A DNA stretch of 42,800 bases from an uncultured Thermoanaerobaculia bacterium (lineage in GTDB: Bacteria > Acidobacteriota > Thermoanaerobaculia > Multivoradales > DATKCC01), in assembly GCA_964539125.1 (NCBI GenBank), contig CAZIIB010000001.1, positions 1 to 42,800 of the forward strand. Direction: 5' to 3'. Position numbers and translations under genes: made by a program. This document shows positions 5,777-36,855 of the stretch, piece after piece (the first letter of the stretch is position 1; each line of letters opens with the position of its first letter). The notes under the pieces were generated by a model. It was not told the origin of the DNA and ran no database searches. It saw nothing but the letters and a program-made list of their open reading frames with translations.

Positions 5777-5785
5777 AGCCGCGAG

Positions 5786-6664: not shown

Positions 6665-6697
6665 GGCCGACCGGCTTATGCCGCGAAGCGGAAAGAT

Positions 6698-6726
6698 TTG
6701 TGCTGCGCTGCGGCGGATGCTAGTAT
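6698..6726 (+). promoter_or_regulatory. sigma70-like promoter for the acyl-CoA dehydrogenase gene
   Basis: TTGTGC (6698-6703), 17-nt spacer, TAGTAT (6721-6726). An AAGGAG Shine-Dalgarno lies about 7 nt before the ATG at 6808. Confidence 0.5.
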
Positions 6727-6807
6727 GAATCGAGGGCCGGACCGCGATTCGACCGGGCTTCGTCGGATCGAGCGGCGGCTCGGGACACTTCCGGCAAGGA
6801 GACTCCG

Positions 6808-9721: not shown

Positions 9722-9731
9722 CGGAGCCTCC

Positions 9732-11654: not shown

Positions 11655-11843
11655 GTTGTTTCCTCCTTCCATAACAATATACTGCACGGGCACTATCCCG
11701 GTGCCGGAAACCGCCGGGCGACGGGGCGTCCACCGCGCCGTCCGCGGGCTTCGATTCGGGGTTCAAGAAACCATAGTACAGATATCCAGCAATGTCGGGA
11801 CAGTTGCTGAAGCCTCGCCCGCAGCCTTCGATAGAGTCAGCCG

Positions 11844-13524: not shown

Positions 13525-14982
13525 ATGATTCCTGTCGGCGCCCCTTCGTCCACCCGACCCCGGCGCGTCGCCCGCCTCTCCTCGAGCGGAGACGGCGGCG
13601 CCCGGCCCCGGGCCGGGATCCGGGCTCTGGCGGGTCTCGTCCTGGTCGCCCTGGCCGCCGGCGGCTGTCGCGGCGAGCGGTTCGACGGCCGGCTCCGCGA
13701 CCCGGTGATCCTGGTGACGATCGACACCTTGCGCGCCGACCACCTGGGCGCCTACGGCTACCCCCGTCCGACCTCCCCGTTCCTCGACGAGCTCGCCCGG
13801 CGTGGCGTGGTCTTCGACCGAGCGGTCTCCGCTTGCTCGCACACGGCCCCGTCCCACGCCTCGATCATGACCTCCCTCCAGCCCCTCCAGCACGGGCTGC
13901 TCAAGAACGGCCAGGCCCTCGACCCTTCGCTGTACACCCTCGCCGAGATGTTCCGGGACGCCGGCTACGACACCGCCGCCTTCACCAGCGTCGGGTTTCT
14001 CGGCGAGCTCGCGCCGGGATTCGACGTCATGGACGCCCGCTGGCGCTCGGGGGACCGGACGGTCGCACGGGCCCTGGCGTGGCTCCGGAAGCGATCGGAA
14101 GGCGCCGGGGCCCGCGGCCGGCCCTTCTTCCTCTGGGTCCACCTCTACGACGTCCACCAGCTCCCGGGGCCGCGCGCTGCCCTGCGCCCCGACGAGGCCG
14201 CCCTCGAGTCGTGGAGCGACGAGGAGCGGGAGCGGTTCTTGACCGGCCTCACGACTCTGCGCGGCGTCGACCCGGGCTTCTATCCCGACCGGCGAACCAT
14301 GATCGACCGCTACACGCAATACGACGCCGGCGTCCGGTTCGACGACCGCCAGGTCCGCCGCCTCTACGAGCGGGTGGAGACGGCGAATCCCCAGGCGATC
14401 TGGATCGTGACCTCGGACCACGGCGAGGGTCTGGGCGAGCACGACTACGACGAGCACGGCAAGTACATCTACGAGGAGCAGCTACACGTTCCCCTCATCG
14501 TCGTCGGCGGGCCGGGCAGCCCCCGGCGGATCGATCGCCTGGTGCGGTTGATCGACATCTACCCGACCCTCGCCGGGTGGCTCGGAGCGCCGGCGAAGAG
14601 CGGAGGGCCGCCGCTCCAGGGCTACCCGCTGTTCTCGCCGCGGGCGGTGGAGCGAGACCTGCCGCCGCGGCTGGCCTTCGCCGAGCGTCGCCCCAAGGAC
14701 GGTGCCCGGCACCGCCTGAGCTGGGAGCCCGGCGACGTCTACTCCCTGGAGAGCCTGGCGCTCAAGTACATCTTTCACAGCCAGGGCCGCGACGAGCTGT
14801 ACGATCTGCGATCCGACCCGCTGGAGCTCCACAACTTGATCGACGAGCCCTCGAAAGCCGGCAAGGCGATGCGCAAGCGACTCCTCGGCTACGTCCGGGC
14901 CCTCGCCGACGGCGCCCTCGGCCCGGCCGCCGACGAGTCGGCGAAGCACGCCGCGGAGCTCGAAGCGCTGGGGTATCTCTGA
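13525..14982 (+). CDS. Alkaline-phosphatase-superfamily 'sulfatase-like' hydrolase/transferase, secreted or lipoprotein, Thr at the nucleophile position
   Basis: PF00884-type N-terminal motif ILVTIDTLRADHLGAYGY. At the FGly position it has T-A-P-S-H-ASIMTS (Thr codon 13843-13845) instead of C/S-x-P-x-R. Signal/lipobox LAAGGC. Confidence 0.85.
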   Translation: MIPVGAPSSTRPRRVARLSSSGDGGARPRAGIRALAGLVLVALAAGGCRGERFDGRLRDPVILVTIDTLRADHLGAYGYPRPTSPFLDELARRGVVFDRAVSACSHTAPSHASIMTSLQPLQHGLLKNGQALDPSLYTLAEMFRDAGYDTAAFTSVGFLGELAPGFDVMDARWRSGDRTVARALAWLRKRSEGAGARGRPFFLWVHLYDVHQLPGPRAALRPDEAALESWSDEERERFLTGLTTLRGVDPGFYPDRRTMIDRYTQYDAGVRFDDRQVRRLYERVETANPQAIWIVTSDHGEGLGEHDYDEHGKYIYEEQLHVPLIVVGGPGSPRRIDRLVRLIDIYPTLAGWLGAPAKSGGPPLQGYPLFSPRAVERDLPPRLAFAERRPKDGARHRLSWEPGDVYSLESLALKYIFHSQGRDELYDLRSDPLELHNLIDEPSKAGKAMRKRLLGYVRALADGALGPAADESAKHAAELEALGYL

Positions 14983-14998: not shown

Positions 14999-16855
14999 CT
15001 AGCCGCCGATGTAGCCCAGAGCCCGGAGCTGCTTCTCGAGCTCGGGGTCGAGGTCTTCGGGGACCCGTGGGGCCTCCGGCCCCTGGGCGTCCTCGACGAT
15101 CCGCGCGACGATGGAGCGCATCCGCTGTAGCACGTCCGGGTGCCGCTGCTGGACGTCCACCTCCTCATCGGGGTCCTGCCGGAGGTCATAGAGCGCCTCC
15201 CAGCCCGGGGCGTCGTCGTGGTCCGGGCGCCTCGGGGTCGCCACCAAGTACTTGAACCTGTCGGTTCGCAGGCCCTTGACCTCGATCGGCCCCCAATAGA
15301 CGTCCTCGGAGAAGGCGGGTGCGGGCGGCAACCGTCCGCCGGCGAGGAGCGGCCGGAGCGAGCGCGCCTGGATCGGGTGGTCCAGCTTCACGCCCAGGAG
15401 GTCGAGGATCGTGGGGTAGAGGTCGAAGAGACGCACCTGCTGGCGAACGACCGCGCCCGGCCCGAGCTCGAGGCCCAGCGCCTTGCGCATCGCCTCCGGC
15501 ACGTGGACGATGAGCGGGACCCGCGTCTGCCGGTCGAACATGGCGTGGCCGTGGCCCCAGCCGGAGCGTTCCCAGAGGTCCTCGCCGTGATCGCTCATGA
15601 CGATCAACAGGGTCCGCGCCAGGAGACCCTCCTCCCGGAGCCTCGAGACGAGGAGGCCGACCTGGTGGTCGGTGTAGTGGATCCCGGAGTCGTAGAGCGC
15701 CCGGACGTACTCCTTCTCGCCGTCGGTCAGGTCGCCGCCCAGCTTGCGGAGGACCGCCCGCGAGAAGACCGGCCCCACGCGCCCGGGATCGAGGCCTCCG
15801 GCGAGGTCGGAGTGCTCGTAGGGATCGTGGATCTCGTAGGTGTGAAGGAAGAGGAAGTGCTTGCGGCTGCGATCGCGACGGAGCTCGCGCACGACCATGT
15901 CGATCGAGCGCGGCCAGCGTGCGATGCGGTGCATCTCGAAGCCTCGCGAGAACCCGAACCGATAGGCGAGCTGGGCACCGCCCGTGATCGCCGCCGTGCG
16001 GTAGCCCGCCCGCCAGAGCATCTCGGCCAGGGGCGCCGACGAGAGCCCGCCGCGGCTCAACGGGTAGAGGCCGGTGAAGAGCGCGTGGTGCGCCGGCCGC
16101 GTCCAGGAGGACTGGCTGACGGTCACCGCGAAGCGGATCGAGCGGCGGGCGAGGGCGTCGAGGCTGGGGCTGGTCGGTCGGTCGTACCCGTAGCACCCCA
16201 GGTGGTCCGGCCGCAGGGTGTCGAGCGAGATCAGGACGACGTTCCAGCCGTCCTGGACCCGGCCCCGGTCGAGCCCCTCGGGCGCGGCCCAGGCGGCCCA
16301 GACCGGCGGCCCCGGGGTCGCGGCCTCGGTTTCGAGCTCGATGCGGACCGTCCGGCCCGCCCACCGCGCCAGCGAGACCTGCCGGTCGAGCCACTCACCG
16401 TCGGGTGCGACCCGGACGCTCTCGTCCAGGACGTCCTCCGCCTCGCCGCCGGAGGGGGTGACGCCGATCCGGAAGCGGAGGGTGGTCTCCCGCTGCGCCG
16501 GCTCGGTCAGGTATCCGAGGGCCACCTGGAGCACGGGGTCGCCCTCCGGGATCGCGACCGGGAACCGGTAGCGGCTGGGCGTGGGAGCGAGCAGGGCGGC
16601 CCGGGAGTCCCGCCCCAGCTCTCCCTGGTGCATGATGACCCGCCCTACCCGGCCGGGAGTCGGGATCGACCCGATCTCGGCGCCGGCGACCTGCGCGGGC
16701 ACACGCGGCGCCGGAGAGGGCCATGCGACGACGGCCCTCGCACCCGCGTCGAGGAGCCGGCTCGGCGGGACGGGCGGGCTCTCCGACCGGAAACAGCCGC
16801 CGGCCAGGGACCCGGCCAGGAGGAGGACGAGCCCGACCTCGGTTCCTCCTCTCAT
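14999..16855 (-). CDS. Alkaline-phosphatase-superfamily 'sulfatase-like' hydrolase/transferase with ~200-aa N-terminal beta-rich domain; probable lipoprotein
   Basis: The internal ATG at 16855 gives MRGGTEVGLVLLLAGSLAGGC (signal/lipobox). The rest of the 1203-aa track ORF upstream is Arg/Pro junk. Motifs VVLISLDTLRPDHLGCYGY and W-T-R-P-A-H-HALFTG (Thr codon 16100-16102). The ATG overlaps the upstream stop as ATGA. Confidence 0.85.
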   Translation of the reverse strand: MRGGTEVGLVLLLAGSLAGGCFRSESPPVPPSRLLDAGARAVVAWPSPAPRVPAQVAGAEIGSIPTPGRVGRVIMHQGELGRDSRAALLAPTPSRYRFPVAIPEGDPVLQVALGYLTEPAQRETTLRFRIGVTPSGGEAEDVLDESVRVAPDGEWLDRQVSLARWAGRTVRIELETEAATPGPPVWAAWAAPEGLDRGRVQDGWNVVLISLDTLRPDHLGCYGYDRPTSPSLDALARRSIRFAVTVSQSSWTRPAHHALFTGLYPLSRGGLSSAPLAEMLWRAGYRTAAITGGAQLAYRFGFSRGFEMHRIARWPRSIDMVVRELRRDRSRKHFLFLHTYEIHDPYEHSDLAGGLDPGRVGPVFSRAVLRKLGGDLTDGEKEYVRALYDSGIHYTDHQVGLLVSRLREEGLLARTLLIVMSDHGEDLWERSGWGHGHAMFDRQTRVPLIVHVPEAMRKALGLELGPGAVVRQQVRLFDLYPTILDLLGVKLDHPIQARSLRPLLAGGRLPPAPAFSEDVYWGPIEVKGLRTDRFKYLVATPRRPDHDDAPGWEALYDLRQDPDEEVDVQQRHPDVLQRMRSIVARIVEDAQGPEAPRVPEDLDPELEKQLRALGYIGG

Positions 16856-18756
16856 CGTCTGCTCCACCCGAAGAGCTCGGCGTTGGCCCTCTTCTGGAGG
16901 CGGCCGCCCTCGACGGCGATCCGCAAGAGCCGCTCCCGGGGAGCCGGGAAGCGGGCGCTCAGGAAGAAGACGTCGGCCCGGGCGGCGGGACCGGCGATCC
17001 ACCGATGGCTCTCGCCACCGGCCAGCAGGCGCAGGTCCGAGGCAGCCGAGCGGTCGAGCCGGAGCCGGACGCGCAGGGAGATCTCCTGGCCGGGGGAGGT
17101 CGTCTCCGGGAGCCGGGCGAGGAGGTCGCCGTGGGGCGTCGCGGCAAAGACGACTCGACGGCCGGCGAGGCCGGGGTCCATTCGGTGGGGATGAAGCCAG
17201 GCGCTCACCTCCGGCCCGCGGCGCCGGAGCCAGGCCGGGGCGAAGCTCTTGGCCTTCCCTCCCGAGCTCGCCCAGCGGGCGACCGCGGCCCGGACACCGG
17301 GGCCGAGGCCTCCCCGATCGACGATCAGGGCATCGGCCTGCCGCAAGTCGTCCGCGGCGGCCGCGGCGGCCGCGGCGAGGGGCTCGTAGGCCGGAGCTCC
17401 GGGCTCTCGCCCCTCGAGATAGGTCCCTGCGACCAGCACGCGGTACGCGCGCCGCGGCGGGCGGAGGCCGTGCTCCACCCAGCCCTGGGCGAGCTCCCAG
17501 GTGGTGGGCACGGCGAGCTGGTAGACCAGGGCGGAGCTGCGGCCGGCGGGGAGTCCCACCACCAGGATCGCGCCCACGACCCCGGCGAGCCGGGCCCGGC
17601 GCCGGCGCTCCGTCCCGAGCAGCAATCGGCCGATGGCGATGCCCCCGGCCACCAGGACCACGGCGGCGAACAGGGCGGTGAAGGGGATGATCTGGAGGAA
17701 GTGATTGGCCTTGGCCCGGGGGCTGAGGGCGACGTAGACCGCGTAATAGGCCACCGGGTACGACAGCACCATCCACCAGCCCAGGCGCTGCCCGGCGCTC
17801 CCGCGGCGGCGCAGCGTCCAGACGAGCAGCACCGCCGCACCCAGGACGGCGAAAGCCCCGATCAACGGGCCGAGAAAGTCGGCGTCGAACGGGTACCGGA
17901 CGATCTTCGCCAACACGTCGAGCGGCCCGCCGGTGGCGGTCTGTCGGTAGTGGAGCTCGTTCCTCCGCAGCGCACGGAGGATCTGCGCGATGTGAGGGTT
18001 GAAGAGCCAGAAGGTCGCGAAGCTGGCCACCCCGGCGAGGGCGAGGCCGAGCCATCGGGCCGTCTCGCGCCAGCGCAGGAGCGTGGCGAGGACCAGCGGC
18101 AGGGCGACGACCAGCCCGTTGAGCTTGGCGCCGGTGGCGAGGCCGACGCCGACTCCGGCGAGGAGGTAGCGGCCGGCGTGGGCCGGGCGGCTGGCCGCCC
18201 ACCATCCGGCGAGGAGCGCCAGGAGCGTCGCCGCCAGCAGCTCCACGTCGGGCTTGAAGATTGCGCCGGCGTGGACCGTTCGGGGGCTGGCGGCCAGCAG
18301 ACCGGCGGCGAGGAGGCCGACCCCCGGTGACGCGAGGCGCCGCGCCAGGGAGAAGAGAAGAAGGGTCGCGCCGGCCCCCACGAGCGCCTGCGAGACCCGG
18401 ATCCAGTGGTACCCGAGCCTCGTCAGCCGCCCGTGGGCGTCGAGAACGGCGAGGGCCCGCCAGCCGGTCAGGTCGTGCGCACGCCTCGCCAGGGCCAGGA
18501 CCAGCGTCTGGGGGACGTAGGAGACGCCGCCGTAGTACCCGTTGGCCGGCGTCCAGCCCTGGTCGCGGAGGAGGGCCTGGATGTTGTGGACGTTGAACCG
18601 CTCGTCCCACCAGCGCCCGGCGTTGGGCTCGGGCCAGCCGAGCCAGAGGGAGAGGGCGAGCTGGAAGGCGAGGATCCCGGCGAGCCCCCAGCGGATCGGC
18701 CGGTCGGGGACGCCCGGGGTGAGAGACTCACGAACGGCGGGGAGGAGTACGGGCAT
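16852..18756 (-). CDS. GT-C fold membrane glycosyltransferase, GT39/ArnT/PMT_2-like, with C-terminal soluble domain
   Basis: 634 aa. First-loop acidic motif WWDERF. About 11 TM segments in the pattern of lipid-carrier-dependent glycosyltransferases. C-terminal ~200 aa are non-membrane. Translationally coupled to the downstream AP-superfamily gene. Confidence 0.8.
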   Translation of the reverse strand: MPVLLPAVRESLTPGVPDRPIRWGLAGILAFQLALSLWLGWPEPNAGRWWDERFNVHNIQALLRDQGWTPANGYYGGVSYVPQTLVLALARRAHDLTGWRALAVLDAHGRLTRLGYHWIRVSQALVGAGATLLLFSLARRLASPGVGLLAAGLLAASPRTVHAGAIFKPDVELLAATLLALLAGWWAASRPAHAGRYLLAGVGVGLATGAKLNGLVVALPLVLATLLRWRETARWLGLALAGVASFATFWLFNPHIAQILRALRRNELHYRQTATGGPLDVLAKIVRYPFDADFLGPLIGAFAVLGAAVLLVWTLRRRGSAGQRLGWWMVLSYPVAYYAVYVALSPRAKANHFLQIIPFTALFAAVVLVAGGIAIGRLLLGTERRRRARLAGVVGAILVVGLPAGRSSALVYQLAVPTTWELAQGWVEHGLRPPRRAYRVLVAGTYLEGREPGAPAYEPLAAAAAAAADDLRQADALIVDRGGLGPGVRAAVARWASSGGKAKSFAPAWLRRRGPEVSAWLHPHRMDPGLAGRRVVFAATPHGDLLARLPETTSPGQEISLRVRLRLDRSAASDLRLLAGGESHRWIAGPAARADVFFLSARFPAPRERLLRIAVEGGRLQKRANAELFGWSRR

Positions 18757-18923
18757 GGACAGCGGTTCAGACGGCGCGTGCAGGAGGGCTCCCGGGACCC
18801 GCGCAGTCTACCCCGTGCGCGTCGCGGCGTCGTCCCATGGGCTCGTGGAGGCCGGGCGCTGGCGCGACGCCGGGCGGAGTCGGTAGGCTCTCGCCGAGCG
18901 GGCCCGAAGGCCGGGCGCCGGCC

Positions 18924-18949
18924 GAGCCTCGCCGGGGAAGTCGAGGCTC
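18924..18949 (+). promoter_or_regulatory. 8-bp perfect inverted repeat (hairpin or operator) in the divergent GT39 / MBOAT control region
   Basis: GAGCCTCG (18924-18931), 10 nt, CGAGGCTC (18942-18949), 39 nt upstream of the MBOAT ATG. Confidence 0.3.
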
Positions 18950-18987
18950 TCCGGAGGTATCTTCACTTCGAGGCGGAGCTTCAGTAG

Positions 18988-20451
18988 ATGGTCTTCTCGT
19001 CCCACCTCTTCGTCTTCTACTTCCTGCCGGCGGCGCTGCTCGCCTACTACCTGTCGCCCCGCCGGCTCCGCCACCTCGCGCTGACCGGGCTCAGCTACCT
19101 CTTCTACGGCTGGGCGAACCCGGCCTTCATGGCTCTGATGCTCGCCTCGACGGGGATCGACTACGTCTGCGGCCTGGTCGTGGCCGGGGTCGCGCCCCGG
19201 GGGCCCGGGCGCCTCGCGCCCGCGGCCCCGCTCGATCCGGCGGGTCCCCGGAGCCGGCGGCAGCGCGCGGCGGTGGCCGTCTCGGTGGTGAGCAACCTCT
19301 CCCTGCTCGGCTTCTTCAAGTACTTCGACTTCGCGGTGGAGAGCTACGACGCCCTGCTCCAGGCCGTGGGGCTCTCCGGCGTCGGCGTCGAGAGCGCCTT
19401 GCGGGTCACCCTGCCGCTCGGCATCAGCTTCTACACCTTCCAGTCCATGAGCTACAGCATCGACGTCTACCGCGGCCGTGCCACGGCCCTCCGGAACCCG
19501 GTGGACTTCGCGTGCTTCGTCTCCCTCTTCCCGCAGCTCGTCGCCGGCCCCATCCTCCGGTTCTCGGAGGTCGCGGAGCAGCTCCAGCACCGCCGCCACA
19601 CGACGGCGAAATTCGCTCGCGGTATCGCCTTCTTCAGTCTCGGCATGGCCAAGAAGATCCTGCTCGCCGACCCGTGCGGGCGGCTCGCCGACGCCGCCTT
19701 CGGCGCGGGCTCGATCGCCGCCGGCGACGCCTGGTTCGGGGTGGGCGCCTACGCGCTCCAGATCTACTTCGACTTCTCGGGCTACTCGGACATGGCCATC
19801 GGACTGGGGCTCATGCTGGGGTTCGTCTTTCCCAAGAACTTCGACTCGCCCTACAAGGCCGACTCACTCACCGACTTCTGGCGCCGCTGGCACCTCTCGC
19901 TCTCCACCTGGCTGCGCGATTACCTCTACATCCCGCTGGGAGGCAACCGCCGGGGCCGGGCGCGGACCTACGTCAACCTGTTCGCGGTCATGCTCCTGGG
20001 CGGCCTGTGGCACGGCGCGTCCTGGAACTTCGTCATCTGGGGCGCCCTCCACGGCGGCGGCCTGGCCGCCGAGCGGGCCCTGGGCAAGAAGCCGCTCTAC
20101 GCGGCCCTGCCCCGCCCCGTGCGGGTGGCGCTGACCTTCCTGCTGGTCCTGGTGGGCTGGGTCTTCTTCCGCGCCCGGGATCTGGGCGCGGCCGGCCGAT
20201 ACCTGGCCGCGATGGCCGGCCTGGGCGAGCCGGGTCCGGGGGCTGCCCTCCTTCCCGGCATGCTCTACCGGCCGTACGATCTCGCCGTATTCGCCGCCGG
20301 GGCGTTGATCGCCTTCACCGGTCCCCAGACCTGGGACTGGACTCGCCGGCTGTCCTGGCCCCGGGCCCTGATCTGCCTGGGACTGCTCTGGCTCGCCCTG
20401 GCGACCCTGGAAACCGAAGGGTACAGCCCCTTCATCTACTTCATCTTCTGA
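18988..20451 (+). CDS. MBOAT-family membrane O-acyltransferase (AlgI/DltB/PatA-like)
   Basis: 487 aa polytopic protein. Motifs FWRRWHLSLSTWLRDYLYIPLGGNRRG and LLGGLWHGASWNFVIWGALHG (conserved His codon 20011-20013). Confidence 0.92.
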   Translation: MVFSSHLFVFYFLPAALLAYYLSPRRLRHLALTGLSYLFYGWANPAFMALMLASTGIDYVCGLVVAGVAPRGPGRLAPAAPLDPAGPRSRRQRAAVAVSVVSNLSLLGFFKYFDFAVESYDALLQAVGLSGVGVESALRVTLPLGISFYTFQSMSYSIDVYRGRATALRNPVDFACFVSLFPQLVAGPILRFSEVAEQLQHRRHTTAKFARGIAFFSLGMAKKILLADPCGRLADAAFGAGSIAAGDAWFGVGAYALQIYFDFSGYSDMAIGLGLMLGFVFPKNFDSPYKADSLTDFWRRWHLSLSTWLRDYLYIPLGGNRRGRARTYVNLFAVMLLGGLWHGASWNFVIWGALHGGGLAAERALGKKPLYAALPRPVRVALTFLLVLVGWVFFRARDLGAAGRYLAAMAGLGEPGPGAALLPGMLYRPYDLAVFAAGALIAFTGPQTWDWTRRLSWPRALICLGLLWLALATLETEGYSPFIYFIF

Positions 20452-20455
20452 GGCC

Positions 20456-23400
20456 ATGAACCGCGAACCCACCCCGGCCTACGAGCCCTGGACTCCCTCC
20501 GGACGCGAGGCACAGGCCCTGCGCGAGGTGGGCCGGACGACCGTGTCCCGGCGGCTGGCCGGGCTCCTGGTGGGGGTCTTCCTGCTCACCGTGGGGGGCG
20601 TGACGGTGGTGGAGCAGGTGGAGATCGGGCGCTCGGGCGGCGGTCTCTGGCCGGACCTCGGCGGGCTGGGAGGCCGGTTCGAGCGCGCCCTCCTCGACGC
20701 CGGTCCCCTCGCCGCAAACCGGGTGCTCCTGGCCGCGATCGACGCCTTCGAGGGCCGCCTTGACGAGCGCTCGATTCTGGTCCAGCGGGTGGTCCCCTAT
20801 GCCCAGTGGGCCGAGACCGCCGTGCTCGGGGCGGGCAACCGGCGGGCGTGGACGGGCCGCGACGGCTGGCTGTTCTACCGGCCGGACGTCACCTATGTCA
20901 CCGGTCCCGGGTTCACCACGCCGGCGGCGCTCGCGGCGCGCCGGGAGGCCGAGCCCTCCTGGCGCGCGCCCGTGCGGCCGGACCCGCGGCCCGCGATCCT
21001 CGATCTGGCGCGCCGGCTGCGCTCCCGGGGGATCACCCTGGTGGTGATGCCCACGCCGGTCAAGCCGGTGGTGCATCCGGGGCGGTTCGCCCGGCGGGCG
21101 GAAGGCCTCACGCCGCCGGTCCAGAATCCCTCGTTCGCGGGCTTCGTCCGGGACCTCACCGCGGGAGGGGTCGAGGTCTTCGATCCGGCGCCGCTCCTCG
21201 CACGGGCCGCGCGAACGACCGGCGAGCCCCAGTTCCTGGCCGGCGACACCCACTGGACGCCTGCCGCGATGGAGCGTGTGGCCCACGGCCTGGGAGACCT
21301 CCTGGGGGGCCTCCTGGGGCCGCCCTCCGAGCCGGTCGCGTACCAGCGCCGGCGGGCCCGCGTCGCCGGCGAGGGAGATCTCGTCCGCATGCTCCGGCTG
21401 CCCGCGGGCGCCGGGGTCTTCACCCCCCAAGAGGTCGAGATCTCGCCGGTCCTGGACCCGGCCGGGGCGCCCTGGCGGCCCGACCCGCGGGCCGAGGTCC
21501 TGCTGCTCGGTGACAGCTTCACCAACGTCTACTCCCAGGCGGAGCTCGGCTGGGGCCAGGGCGCCGGCCTGGCCGAGCAGCTCAGCGTGGAGCTCCAGCG
21601 CCCGGTGGACCGGATCGCGGTCAACGCCGGCGGCGCCCGGGTCGGCCGCGAGCGCCTCGCCCGGCTCCTGACCGCGGGGGGAGATCGGGTGCGCGCCAAG
21701 CGGGTGGTGGTCTACCAGCTCGCCGTGCGAGAGCTGGCCGCCGGTGACTGGCGTCCGGCGCCCTCCCCGGCACCCGAGGAGGCCGCCGCCCCGGGCGCCG
21801 AGGCGGAACGGGCGCTGCTCGGCGACGGCTTCGTGGTCTGGGAGTCGAACCGCGGTGGTGACTGGCGCATCTGGCAGGTCCGCCTCGACGGCACCGGCCT
21901 GCGCCGGCTCAGCCCCGACGAGCCCGGCCGCCAGCACTGCTGCCCCCACCTGTCGCCGGACGGCAAGCGGATGGTCTATCTGAGCCGGTCCGGGAGCCGA
22001 ACCGAGTATCCCGAGGGGCCGGCCCCGGGAGCGCTGCGCCTGGTCCACTTGGACGACCGCTCGGAGGAGACCCTGGTGGAGGCGGCCCGGACCTACGGCT
22101 GGGGCGACCGCGCGGCGGTCTGGAAGAGCGACGACGAGCTGATCTACATCGACGGCGACGGCCGGACGGTCCTTCTGGACCTGGAGACCGGGGTCTCGCG
22201 GCCGTTGACCGCCGAGCCGCGGGGCGAGCTCGCCTGGCTGATCGACCCTACGTTGCGCCACGCGACCACCGGCGCCCCCAGCTTCTCCCTCTACGACGCC
22301 GCGCACCGCCGGGTCCTCGAGCGGCGGGAGCTGGGCGGCTGCGAGCCCTACTTCTCCCAAGACGGCCGCTGGGGCGTCTACATCGCCGGGGCCGGCGGGC
22401 CGATCGACAAGATGGACCTGGCGTCACGCGAGACCTCCATCCTCCTGCGGAAGAACGATCCCCGGCTGAGCACCAAGGGGTATCTCTACTTCCCCATGCT
22501 CTCCCGGGACGGGGGTGCTCTGGCTTTCGGCGCCTCGGCCGGCGAGCACAACCACTTCACGGCCGACTATGACGTCTTCGTGGTGCCGACCGACCCCGAG
22601 ACGCTGGAGATCCTCGGCCCGCCGGTGAGGATCACCCGAAACCCCGCGACCGACCGCTACCCCGACGTCCACCTCGCCTCGCCGCGTCCGCGACGTCCTC
22701 GCGGCGAGGCGCCCTCGCCCGTTCGGGCGGCGCCTGCACCTTCCGGGGAGCCACAGCTCTGGCCCGCGGCCCGCGACTCCCTGGTCTTTCTCTGGCAGAC
22801 CGGCGACAGCCCGAACCTGGTCTTCGACCCGGCGATCGGCGCCGAGCGCTCCGTGAACCTGAAGGCCCAGGGGCGGGCCCACCTCGACCACGACTACGCC
22901 ATGGCGCTCGCCGGCGGAGCGTACGTGGCGCCCCCGGACGCGGCCGAGAGGCTGCTCGCGGCGGTCAAGGCGACGAACGAGCTCACCATCGAGGCGCGGG
23001 TGACGCCGGCCGAGTCGGCGCCGGACGGTTTCCGGCCCATCGTCACGTTCTCGAGCGGTCCGGCGAAGCGCAACTTCACCCTCGCCCAGGAAGGCCGCAA
23101 CCTCGTCGTTCGGCTGCGCACCGGGAAGACCGGTGCCAACGCCGACCGGCCCCAGGTGGCGCTCTTCCCGGTCCGTCCCGGCGAGCCGGTACACGTGGTG
23201 GTGACCTACTCGCCGGGGCGCCTGGTCGCCTACCGGGACGGCGAGCGGGTCGTCGCGTCGGATGCGATTCAAGGGAGCTTCGACATGCACTGGAGCTTTC
23301 GCCGCCTGCTGTTCGGCCGGGAGTGGGGCGGCGGTGGCGACTGGGCCGGCGCCCTGGAGGGCGTCGCCCTCTACGACCGGGCGCTGGCGCCGGAGGTGGT

Positions 23401-23779
23401 CCGGGAGAGCGCACGGCGCTACCAGCGGCTGGTGGCGTCGCGCCCGCGAGTTCCGCGATGGGCACTCCGGGCGCGGCTCGTTGCGAAGTCGACGATCCCC
23501 GGCCTGAAGGAGATCTCCCCCTACCGGAGGGCCCTGGCGGTCTACGACTACCGGGTGGTGGAAGGCCCGCCCGAGCTGGCGGCGGGGACGCGTCTGCGGG
23601 TCGCCCGCTGGGTGATCCTGGACGGCGAGACCCTTGCCGCGGCCCGCGAGGCCGTCGGGAGGGTCCGGCGCCTCGAGCTCGAGTCGTTCGAGGCCAACCC
23701 GCAGCTCGACGGGGTCTACCTGTCCGACACCCTGGGGCCGGCTCCCCAGGGGCCGCTCTACTACGGCGTCGAGCCCTGA
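20456..23779 (+). CDS. Signal-anchored AlgJ/AlgX-like (DHHW/SGNH-like) acyltransferase fused to PD40/TolB-like beta-propeller, LamG/ConA-like domain and an unassigned C-terminal domain
   Basis: Starts 4 nt after the MBOAT stop. TM anchor LAGLLVGVFLLTVGGVTVV. AlgJ/AlgX motifs GDTHW (D-T-H-W at 21245-21256) and LLLGDSFTN. PD40 repeats (SPDGKRMVYLS, SQDGRWGVYIA, SRDGGALAFGA). LamG-like ELTIEARVTP...HVVVTYSPGRLVAYRDGERV. Confidence 0.8.
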   Translation: MNREPTPAYEPWTPSGREAQALREVGRTTVSRRLAGLLVGVFLLTVGGVTVVEQVEIGRSGGGLWPDLGGLGGRFERALLDAGPLAANRVLLAAIDAFEGRLDERSILVQRVVPYAQWAETAVLGAGNRRAWTGRDGWLFYRPDVTYVTGPGFTTPAALAARREAEPSWRAPVRPDPRPAILDLARRLRSRGITLVVMPTPVKPVVHPGRFARRAEGLTPPVQNPSFAGFVRDLTAGGVEVFDPAPLLARAARTTGEPQFLAGDTHWTPAAMERVAHGLGDLLGGLLGPPSEPVAYQRRRARVAGEGDLVRMLRLPAGAGVFTPQEVEISPVLDPAGAPWRPDPRAEVLLLGDSFTNVYSQAELGWGQGAGLAEQLSVELQRPVDRIAVNAGGARVGRERLARLLTAGGDRVRAKRVVVYQLAVRELAAGDWRPAPSPAPEEAAAPGAEAERALLGDGFVVWESNRGGDWRIWQVRLDGTGLRRLSPDEPGRQHCCPHLSPDGKRMVYLSRSGSRTEYPEGPAPGALRLVHLDDRSEETLVEAARTYGWGDRAAVWKSDDELIYIDGDGRTVLLDLETGVSRPLTAEPRGELAWLIDPTLRHATTGAPSFSLYDAAHRRVLERRELGGCEPYFSQDGRWGVYIAGAGGPIDKMDLASRETSILLRKNDPRLSTKGYLYFPMLSRDGGALAFGASAGEHNHFTADYDVFVVPTDPETLEILGPPVRITRNPATDRYPDVHLASPRPRRPRGEAPSPVRAAPAPSGEPQLWPAARDSLVFLWQTGDSPNLVFDPAIGAERSVNLKAQGRAHLDHDYAMALAGGAYVAPPDAAERLLAAVKATNELTIEARVTPAESAPDGFRPIVTFSSGPAKRNFTLAQEGRNLVVRLRTGKTGANADRPQVALFPVRPGEPVHVVVTYSPGRLVAYRDGERVVASDAIQGSFDMHWSFRRLLFGREWGGGGDWAGALEGVALYDRALAPEVVRESARRYQRLVASRPRVPRWALRARLVAKSTIPGLKEISPYRRALAVYDYRVVEGPPELAAGTRLRVARWVILDGETLAAAREAVGRVRRLELESFEANPQLDGVYLSDTLGPAPQGPLYYGVEP

Positions 23780-23780
23780 C

Positions 23781-23797
23781 GGCCCCTGGCCGGGGCC
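23781..23797 (+). terminator. Weak GC hairpin just after the stop of the AlgX-like gene
   Basis: GGCCCC-TGGCC-GGGGCC at 23781-23797. There is no clear U-tract. Confidence 0.25.
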
Positions 23798-23935
23798 CCG
23801 GGCCGCCTTGTTCGGACAGGCCCTTTGCGCTAGCCTGGGCCTCCGTTTCCGCGCGCCTTCCGGGCGCGACACCTACCAGGCCATACTCCGTGACTGCCGA
23901 GTCGAGTTTCCGAGCGGAGCCGAGACCTGGGAGGG

Positions 23936-23998
23936 AGCGTCCCCTTTCCCCCCAAGGGGTGGGAAGGGGATCGAGATGCGGGGGGGATCCCGTGAATC
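23936..23998 (+). repeat. REP-like palindromic intergenic element, copy A
   Basis: The hairpin TCCCCTTTCCCCCC-AA-GGGG(T)GGGAAGGGGA (23939-23969) has the same flanks as copy B at 27987-28052. These are GCGT on the 5' side, then (T/C)CGAG, GATCC and TGA(A)TCC on the 3' side. Confidence 0.6.
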
Positions 23999-24135
23999 CA
24001 GGGGTCTGGAGAAGCCTGGCCGGTGAGCGCAGGCGCGCTCAGTCGTCGTGGGCGGGGGAGCCGCGCCTCGCGAAGCCCACGGAGTGTCAGACCTCCCGTC
24101 GGTTTGAGGCGGAAGTTTTCTAGAAGGAGCCTTGC

Positions 24136-25185
24136 ATGCGAGCTCTGGTCACCGGACACCGGGGATACATCGGCGCCGTCCTCACCCCCATGCTGGCCGC
24201 CGCGGGTCACGAGGTGGTGGGTCTCGACAGCGACCTGTTCGCCGGCTGCGACTTCGGCGCCCCGCCGCCGGAGGCTCCGGTCGAGCTCCGGAAGGACTTG
24301 AGGGACCTGGAAGCCTCCGACCTCGAGGGCGTCGCCGCGGTCCTCCACCTGGCGGGCCTGTCGAACGATCCCCTGGGCGACCTGGACCCGTCGCTCACCT
24401 TGCGGATCAACGAGGAGGCCTCGATCCGCCTCGCCCGGCTCTCGCGGGCTGCCGGCGTCGAGCGCTTCGTCTTCTCCTCCTCGTGCAGCACGTACGGAGC
24501 GGCCGGAGACGAGATGCTGGACGAGGAGGCGGCCTTCAACCCGGTGACCCCCTACGCGCGATCGAAGGTGCGCATGGAGGCTGCGCTCCACGACCTCGCC
24601 GGCCCGGGCTTCAGCCCCGTCTACCTGCGCAACGCCACCGCCTGTGGCGTCTCGCCGCGCCTGCGCCTCGACCTCGTGCTCAACAACCTGGTGGGTTGGG
24701 CACACACCACCGGCCGGGTGCGTCTCCTCTCCGACGGCACGCCGTGGCGACCCCTGGTCCACGTCGAGGACATCTGTCGGGCGTTCCTCGCCGCCCTCGG
24801 CGCGCCGCGCGAGGCGATCCACGACCAGGCCTTCAATGTCGGCCGGACCGACCAGAACTTCCGCATCCGGGAGCTCGCCGAGATCGTGGCCGAGACGGTG
24901 CCCGGCTGCGAGGTGGAGGTGGCCGAGGGCGCCGGTCCCGACACCCGGACCTACCGGGTCGACTTCGGCAAGATCGAGCGGACGCTCCCGGGCTTCGAGG
25001 CGCGCTGGACCGTTCGCGACGCCGCGCGCGAGCTCTACGACGCCTACCGGGAGACCGGGCTGAGCAGCGAGGACTTCCAGGGGCCGGCGTTCAAGCGCCT
25101 GGGCCACATCCAGGGCCTCATCGACCGTGGCCTCCTGGCCGACGACCTGCGCTGGCGCCGCGCCGCCGCCCCGGCGCTCGGGTAA
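24136..25185 (+). CDS. NAD-dependent epimerase/dehydratase (extended SDR)
   Basis: 349 aa. Glycine-rich ALVTGHRGYIG, catalytic YARSK, GAAGGAG RBS upstream. Confidence 0.88.
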   Translation: MRALVTGHRGYIGAVLTPMLAAAGHEVVGLDSDLFAGCDFGAPPPEAPVELRKDLRDLEASDLEGVAAVLHLAGLSNDPLGDLDPSLTLRINEEASIRLARLSRAAGVERFVFSSSCSTYGAAGDEMLDEEAAFNPVTPYARSKVRMEAALHDLAGPGFSPVYLRNATACGVSPRLRLDLVLNNLVGWAHTTGRVRLLSDGTPWRPLVHVEDICRAFLAALGAPREAIHDQAFNVGRTDQNFRIRELAEIVAETVPGCEVEVAEGAGPDTRTYRVDFGKIERTLPGFEARWTVRDAARELYDAYRETGLSSEDFQGPAFKRLGHIQGLIDRGLLADDLRWRRAAAPALG

Positions 25186-25195: not shown

Positions 25196-26125
25196 GTGCT
25201 CCGCTCCCTGAGGTCCGCCTACCGCCGCGGGCACCGCCTCGCGCTGCGCATCCTCGAGACCTTGGGGCTGAACGTCGCCCGCACCCGCGACTACTACTCC
25301 CCGCTGCCGGTGCGCTCGCGTCTGGAGCGCACCCGGGAGCGCTGGGACCGGCCGAGCGAGATGCCGGGCGTCGAATGGGATCTCGAGGCCATGGAGCGCC
25401 TGCTGGAGCGCCTGGTCGCCGAGCACGCGGCCGCGTACGAGGCACTCCCCCCCTACGAGGAAGCCAAGGGGCTCGGCTACGGGCCGGGCTTCACCCGCCT
25501 CGACTCGCTCTTCACCTACCTCGTGGTGCGCCATCTCCGACCCCGCCGGGTGATCGAGATCGGCTCCGGCCTGTCGACCTACTACCTGGCGCAGGCGGCG
25601 GCCGCCAACGCGAGCGACGGTGCCGGGTGCGCCATCACCTCGATCGATCCCTACTCGGGCGATCGGGTGGCCGGGCTGCCCGGCGTCGAGGTGCTCCGCC
25701 GGGAGGTCCAGGACGTGGAGCCGGCCTACTTCTCCCGCCTGGAGGCCGGCGACGTGCTGTTCATCGACTCGACTCACGTGGTCAAGATCGACGGCGACGT
25801 GCCCTTTCTCTACCTGGAGGCCCTGCCCCGGCTGGGCCGCGGGGTGGTGGTGCACAGCCACGACGTGCACTTTCCCTACAACGTGCCGTACCCGGCCCAA
25901 GAGTACGTCTTCGACGCCAAGTGGCCCATGGTCTGGACCGAGGCGATGCTGCTCCAGGCCTTCCTCGCCTGCAACCGGGAGTTCGAGATCTTCCTGGCGC
26001 CGCCCATGATCCGCCACCACGACGAGGCCTTCCTCGAGCGAACGGTGCCCGGCTACCGGCCGGTCGCGGCGGCGGACTACGACACACACTTCGGTTCGAT
26101 CTGGTACCGCCGCGTCGCGGGCTAG
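25196..26125 (+). CDS. Class I SAM-dependent methyltransferase (Methyltransf_24 / TylF-CmcI-like)
   Basis: Motif I VIEIGSGLSTYYLA; FIDSTHVVKIDGDV. I prefer the GTG at 25196, 10 nt after the epimerase stop. The track ATG at 25127 would overlap the upstream gene by 59 nt. Confidence 0.75.
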   Translation: MLRSLRSAYRRGHRLALRILETLGLNVARTRDYYSPLPVRSRLERTRERWDRPSEMPGVEWDLEAMERLLERLVAEHAAAYEALPPYEEAKGLGYGPGFTRLDSLFTYLVVRHLRPRRVIEIGSGLSTYYLAQAAAANASDGAGCAITSIDPYSGDRVAGLPGVEVLRREVQDVEPAYFSRLEAGDVLFIDSTHVVKIDGDVPFLYLEALPRLGRGVVVHSHDVHFPYNVPYPAQEYVFDAKWPMVWTEAMLLQAFLACNREFEIFLAPPMIRHHDEAFLERTVPGYRPVAAADYDTHFGSIWYRRVAG

Positions 26126-27906
26126 CCCGCCGGCCGGGGGTCGGAGAGACGGAAGCGGAGGGGCGTGGCGCGCTCTTCCGCGCCCTGGGGCAGGCCCACC
26201 TTCAGGCGGTAGAGCCAGACGGGCTCCCGGGACCACCACATGCGGTGCCGTGCGGCCGGCCGTCCCAGGGTGAGGAGGAAGACCGAGGAGCCGCCGGGTC
26301 GGGCCATCAAGAGCTCCGCCCGGGCGCCCGAGACGCGGATCGAGGCCGGCGCGGGAGGCGCCACCTCGAGGCGGAGGGTGTCGAGGCGGCGGGGCACCGC
26401 GAGGAGGAGCTCACCGGGCCGCCGCCCGCGGAGCTCGAGCCAGGACCCACCCTCCACCGGCTCGAGGTTCGTCCCCAGGGACTTGACCCAGAGGCCGTTG
26501 TGCACAACGTCCTCGTGCCCCGACGGCTTGAGGTGGTCGAGGGTGGTCTCGTAGGGGAGCAGCTCCTCCGCGACCGACGAGACGTAGCGATATCCTCCGC
26601 CGCGCGCGAACGGGTCGGCCCGAGGCGCGGTCCACACCGGCCACAAGAACGGCGCCGCCAGAGCCGCGGCCAGCAGGGCCCAGGCACCGCTGGCCCGGCG
26701 GCCCGCCAGGAACCAGAACGCCGGGTAGACCGGCAGGATGTAGCGGTTGGCCATGGAGCCGCCGCCGCCGTAGAAGTTGAACGGCCGCACGTAGAGGAAG
26801 CAGGCGGCGGTGACCGCCACCGCCACCAGCAGGGCCCACCGGCCGCGCCGAGGGCGGAAGGCGACGAAGCCGAGGAGAGCGGGCAGGAAGTAGGGCAGGA
26901 CCCCCACGTGGCGGCCTGCCAGGAAGTAGACGACGTCCCAGGCGGCGACCCGGGGGAAGAGCTCGAAGTGGAGCTTGCGGGGAGCCACCCACGAGCCGCT
27001 CCCGGTCCGCCGCGCGAGCTCGGCCGGCCAGTCGGAGACGGGGAAGTCGACCTCGGGGAACCCGGTGTAGGAGTAAAAGCCCATCCGCTCGCCGCCGTAG
27101 CTGGTCCAACGGCCATGGACCGCCAGGCTCAGGGCCACGCCGCCGGCGGCCAGGGCGAGGGCGCCGACGAGAACGCCGGTGAGGGCGGGCCGGCGCCGGG
27201 AGCGGGGCGTGGCGAGGGCGACGGGAAGGAAGAGGATGCCGTAGAACGGCCGCGAGAGGGTCACGACGGCGAGGAGGGCGCCGGCGGCGGCCCAGCGCAG
27301 GAAGGTTCGACGCGGGGAGAGCGCCGGCGGGGGCCGCGACGGATCCTCGCCTTCGGAGACGGGCGTCTCGTTGCGTTCGGCGTCTCCGTAGGCGAGGGCC
27401 AGCGCCACGGCCACGAGGTCCATGAGAAAGAGGTCCGCGTGGACCCAGAAGACGTAGGCGAAGGCCACGGAGGCGAAGAGGAAGGCGGCGACCCACAGCG
27501 GCGCGGCGGGCCCGAGCCGGCGGCGCAGGGCGAGCGCCGAAGCGATGCCCGCGAGCGCCAGGAGCAGCGCGTTGGCCACCAGCGGGCCCCGCACCGGGGC
27601 GAGGCGGACGAAGGGGGCGAGGAACAGGGGGTAGAAGGAGGGCTTGCCGAACGACAGGGAGCGCCCCCGGTCGCCGGTCTGGAGGATCAACCCTTCGGGG
27701 ACCCGGTGCCAGAGGGCGACGAACCGCCGGTAGTCCTCTCCCGAGTAGGCGAAGTCCCGGTCCCAGGCCAGGCTCTGAGCCTCCATCAGGTAGGTGGCCT
27801 CGTCGCCCACCAGCCCCGGCCACTGCCGGCGGTCGAAGGTGGCGGCCGCCGCGAGAGTCGCCGCGAGCAGCACGATCAGGACGCTCCAGGAAACGCGGGC
27901 ACGCAT
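26122..27906 (-). CDS. GT-C-like polytopic membrane glycosyltransferase (divergent ArnT/GT39-like) with C-terminal soluble domain
   Basis: The internal ATG at 27906 gives MRARVSWSVLIVLLAATLAAAA. First-loop acidic motif LVGDEATYLMEAQSLAWDRD. At least 10 TM segments and a ~150-aa non-membrane C-terminus. The track's 62-aa N-terminal extension runs through the REP-like element. Confidence 0.65.
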   Translation of the reverse strand: MRARVSWSVLIVLLAATLAAAATFDRRQWPGLVGDEATYLMEAQSLAWDRDFAYSGEDYRRFVALWHRVPEGLILQTGDRGRSLSFGKPSFYPLFLAPFVRLAPVRGPLVANALLLALAGIASALALRRRLGPAAPLWVAAFLFASVAFAYVFWVHADLFLMDLVAVALALAYGDAERNETPVSEGEDPSRPPPALSPRRTFLRWAAAGALLAVVTLSRPFYGILFLPVALATPRSRRRPALTGVLVGALALAAGGVALSLAVHGRWTSYGGERMGFYSYTGFPEVDFPVSDWPAELARRTGSGSWVAPRKLHFELFPRVAAWDVVYFLAGRHVGVLPYFLPALLGFVAFRPRRGRWALLVAVAVTAACFLYVRPFNFYGGGGSMANRYILPVYPAFWFLAGRRASGAWALLAAALAAPFLWPVWTAPRADPFARGGGYRYVSSVAEELLPYETTLDHLKPSGHEDVVHNGLWVKSLGTNLEPVEGGSWLELRGRRPGELLLAVPRRLDTLRLEVAPPAPASIRVSGARAELLMARPGGSSVFLLTLGRPAARHRMWWSREPVWLYRLKVGLPQGAEERATPLRFRLSDPRPAG

Positions 27907-27986
27907 CGGGAGGATTCTCTCAGAGCCCCGGAGAAAACCAGCGCGCACTACGCAGTGTCCGGCGACGGTGTTCCCTCTGGATGGGG

Positions 27987-28052
27987 GCGTCCCTCTCCCC
28001 CCAGGAGGGGATGGAGAGGGACCGAGGGTGAGGGAGGTGATCCGCCTGATCC
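27987..28052 (+). repeat. REP-like palindromic intergenic element, copy B
   Basis: Hairpin TCCCTCTCCCCCC-AGGA-GGGG(AT)GGAGAGGGA (27990-28021) followed by CCGAGGGTGAGGG. Same architecture and flanks as copy A. Lies between two minus-strand genes. Confidence 0.6.
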
Positions 28053-28170
28053 ACCGGTCCGCAGACACCACGCTGGCGAAGGTCGTCTCCAACGCCTGCC
28101 GTGGTCGGGGGGAGCGGCCGGCGAAGTCGATGCCCAGTGATGCTCCGCGCAGGATTTTGGCGGAGGTTCT

Positions 28171-28932
28171 TCAAAGTTGCCGGTGGAGCCAGTCCAGGTT
28201 CGAGCGCTTGTACCAGTGCCAGGAGCGCGCGCGGCCGAGGGCCAGGAGCTCGGGCACGGTGACGAAGCGGTACCGGGAGCCCAGCTCCTCCAGCAGGCGA
28301 GCCACCGCCTCGATCACCGGCTCGCGGTCCCGGTGCGCTTCGGCGTCGGTGTCGTAGAGGGCGTCGTGGAGCACGACCACGCTCCCCGGCCGGATCCGGG
28401 ACCGCATCCGGTCGAGGAGGGTGTCGGCGTCGTCGCCCCGCCAGTCCTCGGCCATCACGTCCCAGGCCACGACCCGGAAGCCCAGGCGCCGGGCGTCGAG
28501 ATAGCTGCCCGGGCTCTGATGCCCCCACGGCGGCCGGAACAGCCGGCAGGCTCCGGGCGGCAGGGCCTCCTGGCACCAGCGGAGCTGCAGGCGTCGCCAG
28601 TGGCTCTTGAGCAGGGGCATCGAGACGTGGCCCCAGGTGTGGTTGCCGATCGCGTGCCCTTCGCGCGCCACCCGCTCGGCCAGCGTCCGGTGGCGAACGG
28701 CGGCCTTGCCGACCATGAAGAAGGTCGCGCGAGCCCGGGAGTGGGCGAGGATCTCGAGCAGGCGGGGAGTGGCCTGCGGGTTCGGACCGTCGTCGAAGGT
28801 CAGGGCGACCGCCGGTTCCTCGGTGTCGACCCGGATCAGGGTACCGACCCCGCGAGCGCTGGCGGCCACCCAGTCCTTGACCCGCTCGCGGGCGGGAGCG
28901 CCCTTCGCGAGCCAGCGGGGGAGCGGGCTCAT
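28171..28932 (-). CDS. Polysaccharide deacetylase (CE4 / NodB homology domain)
   Basis: NodB motifs ALTFDDGP and GNHTWGH. I prefer the ATG at 28932, with GGGGGAG 6 nt upstream, over the track start at 29052. Confidence 0.85.
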   Translation of the reverse strand: MSPLPRWLAKGAPARERVKDWVAASARGVGTLIRVDTEEPAVALTFDDGPNPQATPRLLEILAHSRARATFFMVGKAAVRHRTLAERVAREGHAIGNHTWGHVSMPLLKSHWRRLQLRWCQEALPPGACRLFRPPWGHQSPGSYLDARRLGFRVVAWDVMAEDWRGDDADTLLDRMRSRIRPGSVVVLHDALYDTDAEAHRDREPVIEAVARLLEELGSRYRFVTVPELLALGRARSWHWYKRSNLDWLHRQL

Positions 28933-29072
28933 GGTCGCTCCCCCGCGATGCTCGAGCGGCCTGGACTGGGCGGGTTCGCAGTTCCCATCGCGGCTCTCGG
29001 GGGGAAAGGCGACGGTAGCACAGGCGCCGCCGGTTGTCCCTGCCCGCCCCATGGAATAGCCTTGCGGCGCCC

Positions 29073-36800: not shown

Positions 36801-36855
36801 GGGCGCGAGGGCTGCGGGCGGCCCCGGACCTCGGGGAGCTGGTACGATACCGCGG

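Follow-up and report, generated by a model that had tools for sequence, protein, structure and literature searches.

The DNA analysed here is a stretch of 42,800 nucleotides (nt) from an uncultured Thermoanaerobaculia bacterium (Acidobacteriota; contig CAZIIB010000001.1, positions 1 to 42,800), hereafter referred to as the window, with a guanine plus cytosine (G+C) content of 72%. It contains a gene for a membrane O-acyltransferase of the MBOAT family, followed by an open reading frame (ORF) of 1107 amino acids (aa) in which an AlgJ/AlgX-like domain is joined to a PD40 beta-propeller, a LamG domain and a small C-terminal beta-barrel. Homology and gene order make it rather probable that this gene pair specifies an MBOAT-SGNH-type O-acyltransferase system that acts outside the cytoplasm and most likely transfers acetyl groups; in it, the propeller, LamG domain and barrel would form a conserved third module. 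This is a well-known kind of acylation system with a widespread third part, and the third module includes a new domain family. The fusion in the window is one form of a conserved trio, the extra modules being usually encoded by a separate adjacent gene.

The two genes and the parts of the fusion protein are located as follows (all on the forward strand, with the basis of each assignment in brackets):

18988–20451 (+): MBOAT gene, membrane O-acyltransferase, 487 aa (ORF, Pfam MBOAT)
20456–23779 (+): 1107-aa fusion ORF, stop codon included, joining all the parts listed below (ORF, Pfam, full-length homologues, fused loci)
20552–20620 (+): signal anchor, single hydrophobic segment, aa 33–55 (hydropathy scan)
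20633–21790 (+): AlgJ/AlgX-like, SGNH-type acyltransferase domain, aa ~60–445 (Pfam ALGX, family profile)
21809–22690 (+): six-bladed PD40/TolB-type beta-propeller, aa 452–745 (Pfam PD40, profile, AlphaFold2, Foldseek)
22694–22747 (+): disordered Pro/Arg-rich linker, aa 747–764 (AlphaFold2)
22781–23437 (+): LamG/concanavalin-A-like jelly roll, aa ~776–973, and connecting helix, aa 979–994 (Pfam, AlphaFold2)
23438–23776 (+): C-terminal small beta-barrel of ~110 aa, the tail (conservation, AlphaFold2)

Domain architecture of the gene pair

The two ORFs are separated by 4 nt (junction sequence TTC TGA GGCC ATG). Third-codon-position G+C was 0.95 in the MBOAT ORF and 0.91 in the 1107-aa ORF, as is typical of real genes at the G+C content of the window, and no other ORF in the region had gene-like values. 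Upstream, an intergenic segment of 231 base pairs (18757–18987) separates the MBOAT gene from a divergently transcribed PMT_2 gene; a promoter and terminator scan of 18600–24300 revealed nothing informative.

Pfam identified the first product as an MBOAT protein (MBOAT, E = 1.5e-31; MBOAT_2, E = 1.1e-6), and the NCBIfam DltB model matched it below the cut-off only. Its putative catalytic histidine, His302 (nt 19891–19893), lies in the sequence WRRWH. The protein ends in SPFIYFIF, directly followed by the stop codon, and this terminus contains an acyl-shuttle motif of the FxYxxF type (FIYFIF, with Tyr484; nt 20431–20448); the ending NPFIYFxF, again at the stop codon, was kept in all 18 of the related loci inspected. 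The tyrosine of this hexapeptide is auto-acetylated in PatA, and a role in carrying the acyl group over to the SGNH protein has been proposed for it throughout the bacterial MBOAT-SGNH systems (PMC12148441). The sequence-level features by which membership of these systems is recognized were all found in the window: an MBOAT with its histidine region, a C-terminal FxYxxF motif and an adjacent extracytoplasmic partner with a Ser-His-Asp triad.

The hydrophobic segment at aa 33–55, the only such segment in the 1107-aa protein, is preceded by the basic stretch RTTVSRR and is predicted to be a type II signal anchor, placing the remainder of the protein outside the cytoplasm. Pfam ALGX (PF16822) matched aa 133–396 (E = 8e-20; 72 bits, with a cut-off of 26.5), and the family profile of this N-terminal domain matched AlgJ 4O8V (1.3e-19), AlgX 4KNC (7e-13) and 7ULA (9e-12). 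The signature residues of AlgJ (P-x-K, D-x-H-W and G-(T/D)-S-(Y/F)) and its triad were defined previously (PMC4148444). The corresponding motifs here are PTPVK (aa 199–203; P201-x-K203), GDTHW (263–267) and GDSF (352–355), with the histidine before the serine, in permuted order; the profile alignment placed DTHW on DTHW/DHHW and GDSF on GTSY of the AlgJ/AlgX structures. The triad residues are encoded at nt 21245–21247 (D264), 21251–21253 (H266, followed by W267) and 21515–21517 (S354). An alignment of 26 family members showed P201, K203, D264, H266, W267, G352, the D that follows it and S354 to be invariant or nearly so.

For the propeller, Pfam PD40 matched aa 496–512 (E = 1.9e-5; 24.9 bits, with a cut-off of 20.9), and profile matches were obtained to Atu1656 (2OJH, 3e-9), TolB (~1e-6) and oligogalacturonate lyase (2e-4). 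The AlphaFold2 model of aa 449–1107 had a predicted local distance difference test score (pLDDT) of 90.2 and a predicted template modelling score (pTM) of 0.83, with propeller values of ~90 or higher, and Foldseek aligned the propeller with TolB propellers (target-normalised template modelling (TM) score of ~0.5, root-mean-square deviation (rmsd) of ~4 Å). In a multi-phylum alignment of 32 sequences, the invariant residues were E463, R466, R471, H494, R545, R552, W556, C629, D636, D668, Y678, S694, H698, Y705, D733 and R734, with H498, E630 and H700 near-invariant. This set goes beyond the generic PD40 hallmark, and its residues are mostly placed on inner strands of different blades by the predicted secondary structure. 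The propeller is the most conserved extracytoplasmic module, being 48–66% identical to that of the window across phyla.

The linker, the only part of the model with a pLDDT below 50, sits where longer relatives have a PKD segment and a further stretch of ~100 residues; the alignment showed a PKD-bearing insert at this position in P0004, P0008, P0010, P0014 and P0016. Beyond it, Pfam Laminin_G_3 (PF13385) matched aa 821–982 (E = 1.9e-14; 54.5 bits, with a cut-off of 27.6). The LamG domain was modelled as all-beta (pLDDT ~90), and its Foldseek matches were the lectin-like domains of trans-sialidases and the Hc fragments of clostridial toxins. LamG is the most variable module: of the 50 complete loci, tblastn recovered it in just 5, even though the split partner proteins do have Pfam matches to LamG.

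The tail is present in all architectural variants and is characterized by the motif S-x-x-P-x-L-x-E-I-x-P-Y-R-x-A-L ... R-V-A-H-W ... L-D-G ... G, in which S1012, P1015, L1017, I1020, P1022, Y1023, R1024 and L1027 are invariant. Modelled alone with AlphaFold2, it formed a confident small beta-barrel (pLDDT 90.6, pTM 0.83). Searches against Pfam and PDB sequences returned noise only (Spy and DUF7586, E > 0.04), and the best Foldseek match of the model against the PDB (E = 0.015, TM 0.41) was to OB-like folds, for which no assignment was made. A profile search of 1.84 billion cluster representatives retrieved 988 clusters with the tail at E ≤ 1e-10, nearly always at the C-terminus of proteins of ~700 or ~850 aa.

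An earlier note on this DNA, made from the sequence alone, had described an MBOAT gene followed within 4 nt by a signal-anchored protein of the AlgJ/AlgX type. The ORFs, the Pfam matches (MBOAT and ALGX) and the motifs bear this out; the domain coordinates that it proposed are accurate to within a few tens of bases, and its assignment of a TolB-like PD40 propeller and a LamG domain was upheld by Pfam, the profile search and AlphaFold2/Foldseek. The triad has not been lost, D264/H266/S354 being present, aligned with the AlgJ/AlgX structures and invariant in the family. The region that it left as an unassigned tail (aa ~995–1107) is instead a conserved, confidently folding domain found in every architectural variant.

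Fused and split forms of the trio

A first homologue search yielded 143 proteins at E ≤ 1e-5, and architectures were mapped for the best 120 of them. The combination AlgX-propeller-tail (~870 aa) was present in 32 proteins, AlgX-propeller-LamG-tail in 19 (plus one with a doubled LamG call) and propeller-LamG-tail without AlgX in 11, and 41 had a tandem AlgX-AlgX architecture, which corresponds to a different family. The members of this separate family (P0062–P0101, ~900–950 aa, e.g. Abditibacteriaceae) contain two tandem AlgX-like domains and resemble a fused AlgJ + AlgX counterpart; some have a further match to the SGNH domain that normally occurs in fusion with AT3 acyltransferases. Full-length homologues on independent contigs (P0002 and P0007) covered 92–99% of the 1107-aa ORF. 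A second homologue search with aa 449–1107 found more than 500 proteins at E ≤ 1e-20, mostly free-standing, which, where named, were annotated only as "hypothetical" or "LamG-like jellyroll fold domain-containing protein". Giant variants were also observed: L034 encodes a 1797-aa ORF (1717–7110) ending in propeller-LamG-tail, and P0121 (1598 aa) has two copies of the tail.

A genome scan with one genome per species identified 119 relatives; the locus counts given below cover 80 of these, all metagenome-assembled genomes (MAGs), with arrangements read by tblastn of the window proteins and ORF tracing. These loci came from Acidobacteriota (Thermoanaerobaculia, Vicinamibacteria and Holophagae), Planctomycetota, the Kiritimatiellia/Lentisphaeria/Verrucomicrobiales groups, "delta proteobacteria", Armatimonadota and Spirochaetales. 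They were of three kinds:

MBOAT followed by a fused AlgX-propeller-...-tail gene: ~22 loci, all from Acidobacteriota
Three separate genes, mostly in the order propeller-...-tail, MBOAT, AlgX, with junctions of 0–30 nt: ~38 loci from at least 5 phyla
Orphan propeller-...-tail gene without MBOAT or AlgX within 8 kb: ~18 loci

The separate partner proteins have signal peptides, several with lipoprotein-type cysteines, and the layout propeller-(PKD)-LamG-tail. In one Spirochaetales MAG (L080), two propeller-tail paralogues (3768–6401 and 9692–12280) flank the MBOAT-AlgX pair.

The closest relative (L017, 81% identity) shares its gene order with the window and has the AlgX-like and propeller parts as two genes. 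Its AlgX-like gene ends in GDWRPIAGEGP at the stop codon, with a GTGA stop/start overlap into the next gene, which begins with a lipoprotein-like signal peptide and is translationally coupled to the AlgX-like gene. This split is genuine. Since the window lacks this signal peptide, its ORF represents a clean in-frame fusion with no frameshift; the PKD segment has been lost from it as well. The ORF was intact when checked for a possible split, a result with which the ~22 independent loci carrying the same fused ORF agree. The earlier note had also regarded the combination of domains as unlike any in a characterized acetylation system; this holds to the extent that our literature search found no publication linking MBOAT/AlgJ with PD40 or LamG, but the architecture is no one-off and belongs to a populous unnamed family.

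In the 50 complete loci, mean identity to the window was 63% for MBOAT, 54% for the propeller, 46% for the AlgX-like domain and 45% for the tail. De novo clustering of the 703 ORFs of the 80 loci identified the trio as the sole recurring set (77 and 46 loci), and a conserved fourth gene was sought in the same clustering without finding anything beyond the trio in more than 10 of the 80 loci. This fusion/split ("Rosetta stone") pattern, taken together with gene order, argues that the propeller-LamG-barrel unit is the third conserved component of the MBOAT-AlgJ/X pair.

Genomic surroundings

The genes of the window lie inside a glycan cluster, parts of which are shared by the nearest relatives (L017, L031, L036, L002 and L001). 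The features common to the clusters of close relatives are a GT-C-like 656-aa protein, an epimerase, Methyltransf_24 and PMT_2; in the window, there is more than one methyltransferase, and the cluster also includes a Wzx-like flippase, glycosyltransferases of the GT2 and GT4 families and a GFO/IDH/MocA oxidoreductase. It is of the flippase/glycosyltransferase type, and no alginate synthesis or export families, nor AlgF, were found among the Pfam matches of the window genes. Neither DltA/DltC-like genes for D-alanine loading or carriage nor tol or pal genes were present in the window. The individual neighbours of interest are:

11835–13457 (+): BTAD/Trans_reg_C-type regulator, upstream of the cluster; in L017 and L036 such a gene adjoins the trio
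13525–14982 (+), 14999–16849 (−) and 39278–41164 (+): three sulfatase-family (PF00884) genes, two with ~190–200 extra N-terminal residues
16852–18756 (−) and 41139–42761 (−): two PMT_2 (ArnT/PMT-like GT-C) genes
26122–28092 (−): 656-aa multi-pass membrane protein, GT-C-type glycosyltransferase-like, no Pfam match
28171–29052 (−): polysaccharide deacetylase
34437–35828 (−): protein of 463 aa, N-terminus resembling a signal peptide, no Pfam match, in a block of lower G+C (0.67 vs ~0.72)
36583–38013 (+): GDSL/SGNH esterase with a C-terminal dockerin

The GDSL/SGNH dockerin esterase could be a de-acylating counterpart of the acyltransferase. Its ORF overlaps one on the opposite strand (36009–36968, −) by ~390 nt, and both have gene-like codon bias, so the gene calls are ambiguous here. 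The products of the three sulfatase-family genes may be true sulfatases or phospho-transferases with this fold. About 10 other loci likewise have sulfatase genes close to the trio or to the gene for the propeller.

In the 45 loci in which the immediate neighbours of the trio were compared, these were heterogeneous, with glycan genes in a small minority. Relatives of the 656-aa membrane protein were the next commonest neighbour of the trio (10 of the 80 loci), and the recurrent T2SSE, DinB and COX1 neighbours reflect a gene order shared within one lineage. An orphan partner gene on a 12-Mb chromosome adjoins GT4, YfhO-like and Methyltransf_24 genes. In L081, a YfhO-like protein is encoded near an orphan propeller gene.

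Proposed mechanism and alternative explanations

By analogy with PatAB (PMC12148441), we infer an acyl route from His302 to Tyr484, Ser354 and the glycan. The MBOAT protein would take the acyl group from a cytoplasmic donor, presumed to be acetyl-CoA because the window has no Dlt-type carrier genes, and His302 would load it onto Tyr484 of the protein's own FIYFIF motif at the outer face of the membrane. The motif would then pass the acyl group to Ser354 of the membrane-anchored AlgJ/AlgX-like domain (triad D264/H266/S354), which would transfer it to a glycan hydroxyl in the periplasm. In this window, the polysaccharide made by the flippase-type cluster around the genes is probably the substrate. 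For the remaining modules, the most likely division of labour, again by comparison with better-known proteins, is one in which the variable LamG domain would recognize the glycan, like the carbohydrate-binding module of AlgX, with the conserved propeller and barrel holding a conserved partner or ligand, which might be the enzyme pair or else a shared component of the envelope; AlgF sets a precedent for a partner without catalytic function. In this way the propeller and the lectin-like domain may tether the enzyme.

Three observations weigh against this interpretation. Outside the clade of the window, the trio lies in unrelated neighbourhoods, so a dedicated polysaccharide cluster does not generally accompany it and some other substrate is conceivable. 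The orphan propeller-tail genes account for ~18 of the 80 loci, and an alternative acyltransferase partner (AT3) sought at these loci was not found. Furthermore, the propeller is conserved above the enzyme domain and its invariant His, Cys, Glu, Asp, Arg and Tyr residues differ from blade to blade. Such conservation exceeds what a passive tether would need and may leave room for a more specific role; a specific pocket, possibly metal-binding or catalytic, is conceivable. The trio might alternatively modify a conserved envelope polymer (peptidoglycan, or a lipid-linked or lipopolysaccharide glycan), as PatA/PatB do, with the TolB-like propeller docking on an envelope component and the local cluster being incidental. 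The conservation of the trio alone amid heterogeneous neighbours is consistent with this explanation, a conserved ligand would agree with the propeller being so well preserved across phyla, Pal, the peptidoglycan-associated lipoprotein, is bound by the TolB propeller, the closest fold to the one here (PDB entries among the Foldseek matches), and PagL-like lipid A deacylase genes occur near the trio in a few loci. We nevertheless consider it unlikely, given that in the window and its five closest relatives the genes lie within a shared glycan cluster, that LamG is highly variable, as expected if the glycan varies, and that the enzyme domain is of the AlgJ/AlgX type (PF16822), documented for exopolysaccharide systems.

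It is also conceivable, but quite improbable, that the propeller is itself an enzyme (e.g. a metal-dependent esterase, lyase or hydrolase) whose substrate is the same glycan, in which case the fusion would be bifunctional, writing and editing, or cutting and acetylating. Its identity across phyla, above that of the AlgX-like domain, would fit an enzyme, as would residues of the metal- or catalytic-ligand type (H494, H498, C629, E630, H698, H700, D733 and several Arg and Tyr) that are spread over different blades, chiefly on their inner (A) strands, and make up no repeated motif; the orphan propeller-tail genes without an adjacent MBOAT point in the same direction. However, the nearest relatives of the propeller by both sequence and structure are the non-enzymatic TolB and the uncharacterized Atu1656, and some of the invariant positions belong to the hallmark of PD40 repeats in general (WESNR-G-x-W, SPDG, S-x-DG). 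The match to oligogalacturonate lyase, which is a propeller enzyme, would also favour an enzyme, but this lead was rejected: the match was weak (0.038 with the single sequence, 2e-4 with the profile) and the alignment placed the H-x-H of the propeller on no known site. The propeller plus lectin layout does resemble that of (trans-)sialidases (Foldseek E = 2e-13), but the TM score of this match was just 0.25 and there was no sialidase (BNR/Asp-box) Pfam match. Finally, the long ORF might be an artefact, either a sequencing or assembly frameshift joining two genes or a decaying pseudogene. The two genes found in L017 in place of one might suggest this, but the L017 split is a clean GTGA overlap leading into a lipoprotein signal peptide that is missing from the window ORF, the same fusion occurs in ~22 independent loci and many metagenomic proteins, third-codon-position G+C is uniform and the catalytic and invariant residues are all intact. 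An artefact is therefore extremely unlikely.

The interpretation as an MBOAT-SGNH acyltransferase with a third module can be extended, more tentatively and with the odds against it, to a broader proposal. The PD40 propeller-(PKD)-LamG-barrel protein might be an obligatory, unrecognized third subunit of widespread MBOAT-SGNH machines in Acidobacteriota, Planctomycetota, Verrucomicrobiota-related and other little-studied phyla, in which a pocket of the propeller would select or feed the acceptor or perform a second catalytic step and the barrel would be a dedicated new domain family.

Implications

The O-acylation of surface glycans governs biofilm properties and resistance to lytic enzymes. To our knowledge, its mechanism has been worked out in only a few pathogens, whose systems have between two and four known components. 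The third component described here, made up of propeller, lectin-like domain and novel barrel, is defined by fusion, fission and gene order, and hundreds of uncultured bacteria from soil and water have it together with the MBOAT-AlgJ/X pair. Were this module to choose the substrate or to contribute a catalytic step, the current model of acyl delivery to extracytoplasmic polymers would be extended, and ~1000 clusters of proteins annotated as "hypothetical" or "LamG-like" would gain a function.

Comparison with known systems

The best profile and Foldseek matches of aa 452–745 were to TolB and Atu1656 (2OJH), which share the six-bladed PD40 propeller. Unlike TolB, the window protein lacks the TolB N-terminal domain, and the residues invariant in its own family are not shared with TolB. 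TolB identity was rejected: TIGR02800 matched aa 459–514 only, a single blade, with 21.7 bits (cut-off 343), and the window has no tol-pal genes. The trypanosomal sialidases and trans-sialidases (GH33) were the top Foldseek matches of aa 449–1107 by E-value (~650 columns) and have a similar succession of six-bladed propeller, helix or linker and concanavalin-A-like lectin domain. GH33 homology was likewise rejected, with a TM score of ~0.25, an rmsd of ~15 Å, 11–12% identity and no sialidase/BNR motif; the domains match singly, but their arrangement does not.

The systems acting on peptidoglycan (PatA/PatB) and cellulose (WssH/WssI) would share with the window the two-step chemistry in which the MBOAT histidine, the tyrosine of FxYxxF and the serine of the partner act in turn, and patAB, like the trio, forms a cassette complete in itself that turns up in differing genomic surroundings. 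In contrast, PatB is a canonical SGNH protein rather than one of the AlgJ/X type, and neither PatA/PatB nor WssH/WssI has a propeller, LamG or barrel component.

The alginate system of Pseudomonas (AlgI/AlgJ/AlgF/AlgX) resembles the window in that the MBOAT gene precedes one for a PF16822 protein that has a signal anchor and the triad in permuted order (D-x-H ... S). AlgX joins an SGNH-like domain to a carbohydrate-binding jelly-roll module (PMC4148444), and AlgF is a non-catalytic periplasmic third partner required in alginate acetylation (bioRxiv 10.1101/2023.07.25.550544). The window contains neither AlgF nor alginate genes, and an alginate acetylation system proper (AlgIJFX) was rejected in the absence of this gene context and partner. 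It also has one AlgJ/X-like domain rather than two proteins, and its putative glycan-binding module is LamG (PF13385), not the AlgX module. A PD40 propeller and a novel barrel are added here to the scheme known from alginate, and in other phyla these additions are carried by a gene of their own.

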